Positions 3,872 to 21,464 of a stretch of DNA of 27,306 nucleotides are shown here, in pieces. The translations under genes were made by a program, and so were the position numbers. The stretch is from positions 1 to 27,306 of the forward strand of contig CAZMPA010000002.1 in the NCBI GenBank assembly GCA_964567915.1, in the 5' to 3' direction. Under the pieces are notes generated by a model, which did no database searches, had not been told where the DNA came from, and saw only the letters and a list, made by a program, of their open reading frames with translations. This DNA is from an uncultured Isosphaeraceae bacterium (GTDB lineage: Bacteria > Planctomycetota > Phycisphaerae > Phycisphaerales > SM1A02). Position 1 is the first letter of the stretch. Each line of letters opens with the position of its first letter.

Positions 3872-4218
3872 TCGCCGTCGCTTCGAACGGTCGCGCTGAA
3901 GAGCACACCCGCCTCGCCCTCAACCGACGTTGCCCGCAGCGGCTCAACCGCAGGAAACGGGCCGCCACCAACCACCGGCTTCCACGCGTCACCTGCAGTC
4001 CGTCGAGCCAGTCGGTACGACACCTCTCGCTCCGCCCCGTCCACAGTCACCAGCCACCCCCACTGACTGCCGCCCGCCTCCAGGACGGGCCGCTGCACTG
4101 CCGATGCGGGCCGCGGCCAGAGGGTGCCCCCGAGTGCCCACGCAAGCAGCGCCGCCATCACGACGAAGACCGTGATGCGGATAGCGAGGCTTCGCAGACC
4201 CAATGCGACTTGTCCCAT
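3799..4218 (-). CDS. Hypothetical membrane-anchored protein (N-terminal TM helix plus small beta-rich domain)
   Basis: Hydrophobic ITVFVVMAALLAWALGG segment, coding-like codon usage, and an extended -10 positioned 6 nt before ATG 4218. Confidence 0.7.
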   Translation of the reverse strand: MGQVALGLRSLAIRITVFVVMAALLAWALGGTLWPRPASAVQRPVLEAGGSQWGWLVTVDGAEREVSYRLARRTAGDAWKPVVGGGPFPAVEPLRATSVEGEAGVLFSATVRSDGDHRRTIVVGSDGTIISGAVAASAD

Positions 4219-4224
4219 GGACAC

Positions 4225-4233
4225 AGCGTAGCA
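4225..4233 (-). promoter_or_regulatory. Extended -10 (TGC-TACGCT), leaderless start at 4218
   Basis: Minus strand TGCTACGCT-gtgtcc-ATG, located in the 22-bp gap after the ligA stop. Confidence 0.65.
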
Positions 4234-4240
4234 AGGCCGC

Positions 4241-6247
4241 TCACTCCGGAGGCAGGGCCGCCTTCAGTGCCGCCTCGTCCCACGTCTCCACGCCGAGGTC
4301 CTGTGCCTTCTTCAGTTTCGAGCCAGCCTTGTCCCCGTAGATCACGAGGTCCGTTCGTGCGCTCACGGACCCACTGACCGTTGCACCCAGCGACTCCAGC
4401 CGGTCGGTCAACCCCCGACGATCAAAGTCCGCAAGGGTCCCAGTCAACACCACCCGCTTGCCCGTCCACGCCGCGTCGCCTGCTTCGGACGCCCCGGACG
4501 TCCCGGACCTCAGATCGACGCCCGCCTCAGCGAGCCGGCGGAAGACGTCACCGCCGACATCGGAGTGGAGAAACCCATAGAGCAGCCCCGCCGTGATGTC
4601 GCCAAAGTCCGGCAGCGCGGCAAGATCCGCCTCCTCAGCGGCCGTCAAGGCATCGATGTCTGAAAAGTGCGCCTCCAGCGTCCGAGCCGCCGTGCGGCCA
4701 ATCTGGCGAATACCGACAGCAGCGAGCACTCTGGCCATTCCACGGCCCCGGCTCGCGCCGATCGCCGCCACGAGTTTGGCGGCCGCCTTCTCACCGAACC
4801 GCTCGAGCGGGACAAGGTCGGCCTCCTGCAGGCGATAGAGATCGGCAAAGTGGCTGACCAGCCCCGCATCGACAAGTTGGTCCACGACCTTCAGCCCCAG
4901 CCCGTCGATGTGCATCTGGCCCCGCCCCGCAAACCAGGCAATGCGTTCACGAAGCTGCGCGGGACACTCCGGGTTCAAGCAGAAGAGACGCGGGCCCTCC
5001 GGGCCAACGGGCCCTCCGCAGGCGGGGCAGGCGGCGGGCGGTTCAATCTCGACTTCACCGCCCGTCCTCGCCGACGTAACCGGCGACAGCACCTGGGGAA
5101 TGATTTCGCCGGCCTTCTCCACCAGGACGTCGTCGCCGATCCGAATGTCCTTCCGGCGAATCTCCTCGATGTTGTGGAGGGTCGCGTGCTGAACAGTTGT
5201 ACCGGCCAATTGAATGGGCGCCATCGTCGCGCGAGGCGTCAGGGTTCCATTCCGACCAACCTGCCAGTCCACACGCTCCAGCCGCGTTCGCCCCTGCTCG
5301 GCCGGGTACTTGAACGCAATGCACCAGCGGGGCGCCTTGGCCGTCGATCCGAGTGCTGCCTGCTGCGAGAAGTCGTCGATCCGCACCACCATCCCGTCTA
5401 CGCCATAGGACAAGGACGCGCGCTTCTCACGAAACGCTTCGATGATCTCGATCAACTCGCCGAGGCATCGCGTCGATCGGAGCCCGTCACTGATGGGCAC
5501 GCCCATCGCTGCCACGGCGTGCTGAAAGGCTGCGTAGCCCTCGGCCTGCACACCCTCCACAACGCCCCGTCCATGCGCGGTGAATGCCAGGCGGCGCCGA
5601 GAGACGACTTCCGTATCGAGCGATTTCAACGTGCCCGCCGTCAGGTTTCTGGCGTTGGCGTACAGTGGCTCTCCGTCCGCGTCACGTTGCGCGTTGACCT
5701 CCTCAAAGACCTCGTTTGGCATGAAGAGTTCACCACGTATCTCCAGAACGCTCGCGCCGCACGGCCTGAGCCGGACCGGCACCGACCTGATGCGTTTGAC
5801 CTGCGGCGTCACGTCGTCACCGCGAACGCCGTCGCCCCTGGTGACGGCCTGCACCAGGCGGCCCGCCTCGTATCTCAGCGAGACCGCCACACCGTCGATC
5901 TTGGGATCGCACGTCAGAAGCGGCTGCTCAACCTCAAGCGCCGCCGCCACTCGGGCGTGCCAGGTCCGGACATCCTCGATCGTGTAGGTGTTGTCGATCG
6001 ACTGCATCGGTATCTCGTGCTCGACCGATCGAAAGCCCTCAATCGTCCCGCCGCCGACGACCCGTGTGGGAGAACTGGCGTCCCACACCTCCGGGTGCGC
6101 TGCTTCGAGCTGCTCCAACTCCTCCAGGAGCGTGTCAAACTCCCGGTCGGCCATGATCGGATCGGCGTCGACGTAGTACGCATGGTTGGCCCGACCGAGC
6201 AGCGTGCGGAGTTCCTCGATTCGTTCCAATTCCCTGGCGGCGGACAT
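4241..6247 (-). CDS. ligA: NAD-dependent DNA ligase
   Basis: AYYVDADP, adenylation motif [34 protein letters not shown]4 zinc finger (CPAC...CLNPEC), HhH repeats, and a C-terminal BRCT domain (VVLTGTL...[12 protein letters not shown]). Confidence 0.98.
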
Positions 6248-19979: not shown

Positions 19980-19990
19980 ACGATGCCTGG

Positions 19991-21451
19991 TCAGTAGATC
20001 TCGCGGACGACTCCGAAACCGCCGTGGGCCGACGCGTACGCGACCCCGCCACCGAGAATCAACGGTTCAATCGCAATCACCGGCCCATCCACCAGCACGC
20101 CAAGTCGCCTCGACGTTGCCGACTCATCGTCTGTGCCAGACAGCATCAGCAGGAGGATGCCTCCGTCATGCCCCAGCCAGAATGCGTCCTCGGTGGAAGC
20201 GACACACCGGAACCGACCTCCGCCCGGGGGCTGCAGACGCTGCACGCCGGCGGGCGACTCCAATTCGGCCGCCCCGTCTTCGCCAATCGTCACTGTCCAA
20301 CCGAGCACCGATGCCGTTTGAGCCGGCGGCGGAAGCTGCGTGCCGTCCGAGTCAATCTGCGTCGGCTCCCGGCCCGGTCGATAGGCCCAGCGGCCGTGAG
20401 GCGAATCCGCAATCAGCATCTCACCATCAGACGCCGCGCTGGTGAGCCCGGCCGGCGCGTGCGTCCAGTGCACGGCGGAGGCCAGCGGGTCGGCGCTGCC
20501 AACGTCCACAATGCCGCGTCCAAACGTACCAGCCACTGCCAATCGTTCCATAGTCAACCAGTCCGCGTCCTGCACACCATCGACATCGGTCCAGGACTCA
20601 CGCAGCAGACCATGGCCAGTCAGTCGATACACGCCGAAACCCCTGGTCGATACGACGAGCAGCCGGCTCCCCCGCTGGCGAAGACGAACAACCTCCCCCG
20701 GCACCGCCGACGACCAGCGATTGGGGTCAAGTTCCCTGCAGTCCTCGCCGAGAACGCCCACGAGTGCGCCCGCCCGCTCGTTGCGAGCAAAGAGCATCGC
20801 ACCATCCGGAAGCGATGGGTGCGGCTCTGCGGCCTCAAGCAGCGAGGCGGTTCCGACGTAGCGACCGCCAGCACGCCGGTGGATGCGGCGGCCACTCACA
20901 TGCAGCACCCGGCCCCCCGTCGCAACAATGCTCTTGACCGGATCACCATCCGTTCGCACGACTACCTCCCCATCCAGGGTTCTGGCGCCACCCGGCCCGA
21001 GCGTCACCACGGTATCGCCCCACTCCTCCAGCCCTTGTGGCCAGCAACCCAAATCAGTTCCCGAAACGCGGTCCATTTCGACCGGCCTCCACGGGTTCTC
21101 ACGGTTGAGCACGACGACCTCGACGTCTCCGAGCAGGACCACGATCTCCCCGTCGGTGACGACCAGATCTGATGCATTGGGCACGGTGCCGGATGAGGCC
21201 AGCGATGTCGTCGAAATCACCCGACCACGCTCGTCAATGGCCAACAGGTCCGTTCCCGAGAGCTGGTACCAGACACCGTCCCGCACCTGGAGGCGTCGCT
21301 GGGTCCCGTGGGTCGAGTGGTCGATGGCGATCGACTCGGTCCGCGGTCTCGTGGACGTCTCAGGCTTCCACTGGGAAGCGCACCCCCCGGTCGCTCCCAT
21401 GAGCATCGCCAGTAGGATGGAACGCGAGCCGCTGAGCCTGATGGTTGGCAT
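19991..21451 (-). CDS. Hypothetical lipoprotein, probable beta-propeller (LVIVD-like blades)
   Basis: Start ATG 21451, lipobox-like TGGC, and repeated 4-strand units such as SDLVVTDGEIVVLLGDVEVVVLNRENPWRP. Confidence 0.7.
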   Translation of the reverse strand: MPTIRLSGSRSILLAMLMGATGGCASQWKPETSTRPRTESIAIDHSTHGTQRRLQVRDGVWYQLSGTDLLAIDERGRVISTTSLASSGTVPNASDLVVTDGEIVVLLGDVEVVVLNRENPWRPVEMDRVSGTDLGCWPQGLEEWGDTVVTLGPGGARTLDGEVVVRTDGDPVKSIVATGGRVLHVSGRRIHRRAGGRYVGTASLLEAAEPHPSLPDGAMLFARNERAGALVGVLGEDCRELDPNRWSSAVPGEVVRLRQRGSRLLVVSTRGFGVYRLTGHGLLRESWTDVDGVQDADWLTMERLAVAGTFGRGIVDVGSADPLASAVHWTHAPAGLTSAASDGEMLIADSPHGRWAYRPGREPTQIDSDGTQLPPPAQTASVLGWTVTIGEDGAAELESPAGVQRLQPPGGGRFRCVASTEDAFWLGHDGGILLLMLSGTDDESATSRRLGVLVDGPVIAIEPLILGGGVAYASAHGGFGVVREIY

Positions 21452-21458
21452 GCGGCGC

Positions 21459-21464
21459 AGGATA
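21459..21464 (-). promoter_or_regulatory. -10 hexamer TATCCT, leaderless start of the lipoprotein gene
   Basis: Minus strand TATCCT-gcgccgc-ATG(21451): 7-nt spacing. Confidence 0.6.

Follow-up and report, generated by a model that had tools for sequence, protein, structure and literature searches.

TAnnnT hexamers 6–7 nt before the ATG point to leaderless transcripts in an uncultured marine Phycisphaerales bacterium

We analyzed a 27,306-nt stretch of DNA (contig CAZMPA010000002.1 of assembly GCA_964567915.1; 'the window' below means the whole of this stretch), which comes from an uncultured marine member of the Phycisphaerales. Eight of its genes carry a TAnnnT hexamer exactly 6 or 7 nt upstream of an ATG start codon. 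Judging from sequence and conservation, we consider it highly probable that the hexamer is a sigma-70-type –10 box that starts transcription at the ATG itself and thus yields a leaderless mRNA. The mechanism is a known one (group C in the classification of GeneMarkS-2) in a newly observed lineage; no new mechanism is involved. An earlier, sequence-only reading of the window had listed the eight hexamers with their spacers and start codons, and a coordinate check reproduced all of them exactly. It had also named three genes with spacers of 9–12 nt; all three are present, but the pyrF codon at 13356 is GTG rather than ATG. The eleven sites are as follows.

4216..4230, minus strand: TACGCT (4225-4230), 6 nt, ATG 4218; unknown transmembrane protein, predicted leaderless
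6245..6259, minus strand: TACGAT (6254-6259), 6 nt, ATG 6247; ligA, NAD-dependent DNA ligase, 668 aa, predicted leaderless
6292..6307, plus strand: TACCAT (6292-6297), 7 nt, ATG 6305; dacB, peptidase S13, 481 aa, predicted leaderless
13354..13372, minus strand: TATCAT (13367-13372), 10 nt, GTG 13356; pyrF, probable short-leader start
13389..13403, plus strand: TACCCT (13389-13394), 6 nt, ATG 13401; DUF971/GBBH-like_N protein, 109 aa, predicted leaderless
18043..18058, minus strand: TACACT (18053-18058), 7 nt, ATG 18045; acpS, 133 aa, predicted leaderless
18805..18820, minus strand: TAGGCT (18815-18820), 7 nt, ATG 18807; TIM-barrel-like protein, 240 aa, predicted leaderless
18829..18843, plus strand: TACCGT (18829-18834), 6 nt, ATG 18841; moaE, 147 aa, predicted leaderless
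21449..21464, minus strand: TATCCT (21459-21464), 7 nt, ATG 21451; lipoprotein, 486 aa, predicted leaderless
22452..22469, plus strand: TACCAT (22452-22457), 9 nt, ATG 22467; rhodanese-domain protein, 125 aa, probable very short leader
24544..24564, plus strand: TACCAT (24544-24549), 12 nt, ATG 24562; nrdR, 166 aa

The excess of the motif at 6–7 nt is not a chance effect. When TAnnnT-N(k)-ATG was counted on both strands without use of annotation, four sites were found at k=6 and four at k=7; the remaining 39 spacings within k=0–40 had 21 sites together, 0–2 each. The Poisson probability of eight or more sites at k=6 or 7 is 1.7e-5 (5.4e-6 with k=9–12 dropped from the background). The chance of a random match had been put at ~1% per gene, which is right for the composition of the window (65% GC; A 0.18, T 0.17). 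All eight sites open ORFs (open reading frames) of at least 109 codons, each starting with ATG, and each ORF has a Pfam domain, a signal peptide or conserved orthologues; at k=5–8, TAnnnT precedes none of the GTG or TTG starts in the window. The spacers of the eight sites are GC-rich stretches of 6–7 nt without GGAG or GAGG.

With ~31 genes in the window, the motif is present at 26% of them (8/~31), or at ~35% (11/31) if the class with 9–12 nt spacers is included; the latter count corresponds to about half of the window's transcription units. Therefore, the term 'pervasive' used in the sequence-only reading is too strong, and 'substantial' fits better.

That reading proposed to check positional enrichment genome-wide; at the scale of the window, and of 1.27 Mb of DNA from related loci, there is a sharp peak at 6–7 nt. 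The comparison set comprised 104 loci: 80 loci around ligA from Phycisphaerales metagenome-assembled genomes (MAGs), 1.27 Mb in total with GC content of 43–76%, and 24 metagenome loci around cdsA; they cover two regions and are largely syntenic with the window. In the pooled 1.27 Mb we counted 118 (k=6) and 104 (k=7) motif sites versus ~32 per other spacing. As the loci are syntenic and a few genes are counted repeatedly, the downstream proteins were clustered into families; at the family level the high-GC loci showed 35 (k=6) and 32 (k=7) families versus ~14 at other spacings. The JGI contig parent to the window is only 29.2 kb long, so gene families absent from the window were taken as an independent test set. 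Here, 25 (k=6) and 19 (k=7) families were found versus ~9.5 at other spacings; judged by sequence, they include proteins resembling ketol-acid reductoisomerase, type III pantothenate kinase and enoyl-ACP reductase, with further ones resembling Dxr, pseudouridine synthase and nitrilase-like hydrolase. The peak in related loci is confined to purine-initiated codons, namely ATG starts, plus GTG starts in more distant clades; TTG starts in these loci showed no motif peak. Orthologues of four genes of the window account for most of the 43 peak sites in the histogram for close relatives; we counted these sites as conservation, not as prevalence.

Conservation of the hexamer was scored at orthologous starts. 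The DUF971 gene has TAnnnT at 6–8 nt in 19 of 19 orthologues (TACCCT in high-GC and TAGAAT in low-GC loci), and the gene at 4218 has it at 5–12 nt in 44 of 46 (TACGCT, TACTCT, TACCTT, TAAAAT, TACAAT). For ligA, all ten close relatives have the motif at 6 nt (TACGAT, TACAAT, TAGGAT, TAGCAT), and 38 of 75 orthologues overall at 5–8 nt, with TATCCT and TACCAT as additional variants; dacB has it at 7–9 nt in all close relatives (TACCAT, TATCAT, TACGAT, TAGCAT). Smaller samples are available for acpS (TACACT, 6–7 nt, ATG in 3/3), moaE (TACCGT or TACGGT, 6 nt, ATG in 3/3), the lipoprotein gene (TATTCT or TATCCT, 7–8 nt, ATG in 4/4) and the TIM-barrel gene, whose single orthologue found has TAGTCT, 6 nt and ATG. 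In the class with longer spacers, nrdR shows TACCAT or TACTAT at 10–13 nt in 7/7 orthologues; the rhodanese gene has TACCAT at 9–11 nt in three of seven, with TAGTAT at 7 nt in a fourth; at the pyrF site GGTATCAT is kept in close relatives, and low-GC pyrF orthologues have TATGAT, 7 nt and ATG in 11 of 19. What is held across orthologues is T1, A2, T6 and the distance to the start; hexamer positions 3–5 and the spacer drift. A pattern of this kind, with only these three bases and the distance kept, is what marks a –10 element.

Twelve control genes put through the same scoring (SBP, GT1, aminotransferase, thioredoxin-like, uppP, aroK, rnc, thrS, cdsA, CT398, glycosylase and the gene after acpS) showed two isolated motifs only, one in an aminotransferase orthologue (8 nt) and one in a CT398 orthologue (6–9 nt). 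The gene after acpS has a conserved Shine–Dalgarno (SD) sequence of GGAGG type in place of the motif.

Translationally coupled starts behave differently from operon-leading ones. Among 960 overlapping stop/start junctions in high-GC loci the motif was seen at 3 (k=6) and 5 (k=7); at junctions of this type GGAG/GAGG peaks at distances of 5–8 nt (33, 18, 41 and 32 versus ~12). In the window the motif is found at none of nine coupled starts versus 11 of 22 others (hypergeometric P ~0.008, our own calculation). Two remarks made earlier hold here: SD motifs are clear for a few genes only (about eight have an SD core of 4–5 nt at a usable distance), and internal genes use start/stop overlaps, eight of which are present in the window. 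The signal is essentially limited to operon-leading genes, with the exception of four sites located 22–39 nt behind a co-directional gene.

Three pairs of divergent genes have hexamers facing each way, with gaps between the ATGs (the GTG in case of pyrF) of 33 bp (TIM-barrel gene/moaE), 44 bp (pyrF/DUF971) and 57 bp (ligA/dacB); gaps of 33–57 bp leave no space for a leader or for another promoter. The promoters of moaE and the TIM-barrel gene are back to back, with –10 boxes as close as 8 bp. In a family-weighted position-frequency table covering –40 to +30 around the hexamer there was no –35 and no TGn (extended –10) element; apart from the start codon, only T1, A2, T6 and position 3, where C is favoured (55%), carry information. 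The missing –35 gives the promoter reading no help, but the same is known for TANNNT promoters in M. tuberculosis (PMC3898074) and for TAnnnT signals in leaderless lineages of high GC (PMC3160421).

The proposed starts change several gene calls. Calls on the JGI contig share 5 of the 11 starts (ligA, acpS, the TIM-barrel gene, moaE and nrdR), and orthologue protein alignments extend to residue 1 of the proposed starts. The claim that several ORF starts need correction is supported for three genes. The DUF971 Pfam domain occupies residues 12–97 of the 109-aa form, and the 62-aa JGI call would cut the domain. Right after ATG 21451 the lipoprotein reads MPTIRLSGSRSILLAMLMGATGGC, a signal peptide that includes a lipobox-like Cys; the JGI call is shortened to 431 aa from 486 aa. 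The JGI start of dacB lies 7 codons downstream, so that the charged N-terminal region of the signal peptide is lost. For the rhodanese gene, which begins 25 nt past the recX stop, the JGI start is 22539. The start codon of pyrF is ambiguous between 13368, 13356 and 13344.

The gene at 4218 (3799-4218, minus strand) encodes a conserved membrane-anchored protein of 139 aa and starts 22 nt past the ligA stop. It is not called in the JGI contig, but an ENA assembly calls the same ATG; its orthologues occur in 46 Phycisphaerales loci, directly after ligA, every one of them starting with ATGGG. No Pfam family matches the protein, whose membrane anchor, MGQVALGLRSLAIRITVFVVMAALLAWALGG..., lies at the N-terminus; at its 3′ end the gene runs 73 nt into the convergent uppP. 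As to the other sites, acpS starts 39 nt past the stop of the upstream TIM-barrel-like gene, whose 240-aa product has a weak Pfam match to the xylose-isomerase-like TIM barrel. The nrdR start is 34 nt past the stop of the upstream CT398 gene; its leader is predicted to be ~5–6 nt long and has no SD. Both pyrF and the DUF971 gene head operons: pyrF-SBP-cinA-folK-thioredoxin-like in the first case, and in the second a thioesterase and a GT1 glycosyltransferase joined via ATGA overlaps.

The mechanism we propose would work as follows. The TAnnnT hexamers would serve as –10 elements of housekeeping promoters of sigma-70 type, presumably contacted by the sigma factor. With a –10 box 6–7 nt before the start codon, polymerase should begin on the A of the ATG or one base before it. 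The resulting mRNAs would have no 5′ leader and no SD, and by analogy with other bacteria they would presumably be translated by a ribosome that carries initiator tRNA and recognises the 5′-terminal AUG directly; downstream genes of an operon would be translated via start/stop overlaps or from their own SD. The second, smaller class with 9–12 nt spacers (rhodanese, nrdR and probably pyrF) would give leaders of ~3–6 nt. The leaderless reading passed all of our tests at the sequence level: the positional peak, the conservation, the exclusion from coupled starts, ATG at eight sites of eight and the tight divergent gaps; it is from these that we infer the transcription start.

One could argue for a role of the hexamer in the RNA itself, as a non-SD ribosome-binding signal (UAnnnU) on mRNAs with leaders, similar to the atypical ribosome-binding site (RBS) of Bacteroidetes, group B in GeneMarkS-2. 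There is a likeness: group B genomes also have a short A/T-containing signal near the start and modest use of SD, a distance of 6–7 nt is also usual for an RBS, the promoter reading has no support from a –35 element, and it is plausible that the four sites which follow a co-directional gene by 22–39 nt lie on polycistronic mRNAs. However, a group B signal is found in front of internal operon genes as well as first ones (PMC6028130), whereas the motif studied here is not found before internal genes; it is nearly absent at the 960 coupled starts, where SD peaks instead, and is seen at 0 of 9 such starts in the window. Also, the conserved bases T1, A2 and T6 are separated from each other, which fits sigma contacts and not pairing with 16S rRNA; divergent pairs with 33–57 bp between start codons would need promoters inside the opposite gene; and a peak 2 nt wide is sharper than one would expect of RBS spacing. 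We consider a ribosome-binding signal very unlikely.

Another explanation accepts the –10 boxes as real and places the true start codons further downstream; the mRNAs would then have leaders and our corrected starts would be wrong. For DUF971, dacB, the lipoprotein and the rhodanese gene, the automatic caller does choose a start downstream of the proposed ATG, and the pyrF start is ambiguous. Still, an ATG or GTG is kept exactly 6–8 nt from the hexamer while the spacer sequence differs, and nothing else would maintain this distance; the proteins align up to residue 1, the lipoprotein and DacB have signal peptides that begin at the proposed ATGs, the DUF971 domain needs the long form, and the gene caller agrees at 5 of 11 starts. 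The probability we give to downstream starts is just as low as for the ribosome-binding signal. As for an artefact of chance or composition (A/T hexamers near starts in a GC-rich genome, or mimicry by upstream in-frame TAA/TAG), the window is small (~31 genes) and TA words are expected to gather in its few non-coding bases. Yet the comparison with all other spacings in the window gives P ~1e-5. With C as the most frequent third base, the hexamer does not open on a TAA or TAG stop, and at k=7 it is not in the reading frame of the ATG. The motif is also conserved in orthologues from loci of 43–76% GC and enriched in independent families. An artefact is hardly credible; we ruled it out by the spacing P-value, the orthologue conservation and the enrichment among all families and among those absent from the window.

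Several observations weigh against leaderless transcription or narrow its extent. The sites at 4218, 18045, 22467 and 24562 lie 22–39 nt behind ligA, the TIM-barrel gene, recX and CT398, respectively, in the same direction; a longer transcript that begins further upstream could cover these genes as well, and the hexamer would then be internal to the mRNA. We read these sites as internal promoters, with which read-through transcripts may coexist. Some operon-leading genes of the window have no motif (the TPR gene at 21490, rnc, aroK, uppP and rpmH); the TPR gene, with no TAnnnT at the distance expected of a leaderless start, shows that the leaderless type does not extend to all operon-leading genes. 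The motif excess differs by clade, from 6 to 25 sites per 100 kb, and is weak in the most distant loci, possibly an outgroup. As the comparative loci are largely syntenic, the leaderless share is a regional and not a genome-wide estimate. RNA data add little: the window is absent from the metatranscriptomes of the same study. Runs with two related loci, L017 and L088, contain scattered contigs of 150–280 nt at depth 2–14, too sparse for mapping 5′ ends. In L088, a low-depth metatranscriptome contig of 240 nt (6078-6317; run X11, from a hydrothermal vent) has its first base 4 nt past the A of the predicted leaderless ATG (6074) of the moaE orthologue, and no RNA contig in these low-depth data spans any predicted leaderless ATG of this locus. 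By our own estimate ~0.08 such coincidences of contig start are expected by chance; the contig is thus only a hint.

Leaderless transcriptomes have been described in Mycobacterium tuberculosis and M. smegmatis (Cortes et al. 2013, PMC3898074; Shell et al. 2015, PMC4633059), with M. tuberculosis promoters consisting of TANNNT only, without a –35 element (PMC3898074). The window is similar to mycobacteria in high GC, in TANNNT placed directly before the start codon with no recognisable –35, in the share of genes concerned (about a quarter, housekeeping genes included) and in the use of SD or coupling by internal genes. In mycobacteria transcription starts were mapped and ribosome profiling was done, whereas for the window the start is deduced from sequence and conservation. 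GUG leaderless starts are common in mycobacteria; unlike this, all eight window sites have ATG, and the organism belongs to the phylum Planctomycetota, class Phycisphaerae.

In Deinococcus deserti, where the data include differential RNA sequencing and proteogenomics, 60% of mRNAs are leaderless (de Groot et al. 2014, PMC4007540). Transcripts of that species start at or within a few nt of AUG or GUG, which is similar to the two classes in the window (6–7 nt and 9–12 nt); its share is above our estimate of about half of transcription units, made from a single 27-kb window.

Two computational surveys described the same signal. In group C genomes of GeneMarkS-2 a Pribnow-like signal lies 6–8 nt from operon-leading starts, with leaderless transcription predicted for 25–50% of operons (PMC6028130); the TA-led genes of Zheng et al. 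have TAnnnT with uninformative middle positions in leaderless lineages of high GC (PMC3160421). The diagnostic feature of both, TAnnnT at 6–8 nt in operon-leading genes and SD elsewhere, is that of the window, and the window's share, about half of transcription units, is comparable to the 25–50% of operons in group C (PMC6028130). The main carriers named are Actinobacteria and Deinococcus-Thermus; Planctomycetes are not mentioned in the main text of either paper (PMC6028130, PMC3160421). Some Planctomycetes may be silently classed among the ~78 group C genomes that, by our own subtraction, come from phyla not named in the GeneMarkS-2 survey. In ProTISA (2007) the sole Planctomycetes genome was 'atypical only', with no TA-like signal (PMC2238952). 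Nakagawa et al. (2017) reported low use of SD in the single Planctomycetes genome covered and loosely ascribed it to "leaderless and/or S1". For Phycisphaerae, an anti-SD containing CCUCC is reported along with a value of 46, which we read as the percentage of SD genes (PMC10783764). The sequence-only reading was aware of no description of leaderless initiation in Phycisphaerae; our literature search, too, found none for Phycisphaerae or Planctomycetes.

We lean, by a modest degree, towards a broader view in which the Phycisphaerales (PVC) are a further deep lineage with an old, order-wide and so far unrecognised leaderless regime, where ligA, the gene behind it, DUF971, acpS and moaE would have remained leaderless since the divergence of the clades. 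If so, the regime would span protein identities of 46–50% and GC contents of 43–76% and would include 'restart' promoters 22–39 nt behind a stop codon; the clade would lend itself naturally to the study of why leaderless initiation stays stable in evolution at particular genes. Apart from this broader view, the finding adds a PVC lineage to the heavily leaderless bacteria, which bears on the question of whether this mode is ancestral or was gained repeatedly.

The main value of the finding is practical, in start-codon and promoter annotation of Phycisphaerales MAGs; its evolutionary value is modest. Gene finders oriented towards SD mis-call starts in these MAGs: on the window contig an automatic pipeline gave 62 instead of 109 aa for DUF971, shortened dacB, the lipoprotein and probably the rhodanese gene, and missed one conserved gene. 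Mis-called starts distort predictions of signal peptides, localisation and domains; a TAnnnT-N6-7 rule or modelling as group C would fix this. The motif also gives promoter positions in uncultured organisms without RNA data.

Near-verbatim copies of the window were found in marine metagenome runs (DNA runs only) and in the 29.2-kb JGI metagenome contig; the ligA protein has identity of at most 81% to those of marine Phycisphaerales MAGs. The gene map is based on Pfam scans, orthologue searches and public gene calls (JGI contig, ENA assembly). Gene calling by GC3 was dropped, as it is non-discriminating in this genome. A scan of the window at Rfam gathering thresholds gave zero matches. The genes are listed below.

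Left end: partial repeat protein, rnc, rpmH, aroK, uppP
ligA region: conserved 139-aa membrane protein, ligA, dacB
Five-gene operon, minus strand: pyrF, SBP, cinA, folK, thioredoxin-like
Operon, plus strand: DUF971, thioesterase, GT1 glycosyltransferase
Middle of the window: aminotransferase, two small unknown genes, acpS, weak TIM-barrel gene, moaE, HhH-GPD glycosylase, lipoprotein
Right end: TPR protein, recX, rhodanese protein, cdsA, CT398-like protein, nrdR, thrS

In the pyrF operon, folK (minus strand, ~8969-9535) has a frameshift. Two independent JGI assemblies of this organism (L106 and L109) contain 22 bp, CGCATCGACAACCCGCGGACCC on the plus strand, that are missing from the window at 9202/9203. 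The loss of 22 bp shifts the frame of folK (HPPK), and the Pfam match ends at profile position 92 of 116; the JGI protein is intact (188 aa). Either the assembly is wrong here or the strain differs.

An ORF of 305 aa called 'recX' (21490-22441, plus strand) is probably two genes, as in the JGI call: a 106-aa TPR protein (21490-21810, in another frame) and recX proper (21920-22441, 173 aa). The TPR gene is divergent from the lipoprotein gene, at a distance of 38 bp.

The rpmH gene (L34, 47 aa; 2092-2235, plus strand) was missed by the ORF track, and the opposite-strand ORF 1894-2274 is probably not a gene. A good SD (GAGGTG, 8 nt) precedes rpmH, a GC-rich hairpin (cccgcc-ccttc-ggcggg) lies just upstream of the gene, and there is no rnpA behind it. 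Upstream of rnc (~1890-1960, minus strand) a non-coding stretch that includes ccccgtcctcgcg(t/c)gg is kept in the close relatives L001-L011, while its flanks vary; it could be a leader or a regulatory structure for rnc.

On the parent contig thrS is followed by infC, the gene for IF3 (L108, 1-433, just past the right end of the window); the thrS-infC order is also that of E. coli. In E. coli, IF3 discriminates against leaderless mRNAs, and the sequence and regulation of IF3 in the Phycisphaerales lineage may be of interest. At the left end, positions 14-1084 (plus strand) encode a repetitive protein rich in Ala, Gly and Thr, at least 356 aa long in the window and 465 aa in the JGI call; it has no Pfam match and is conserved in 19 related loci.

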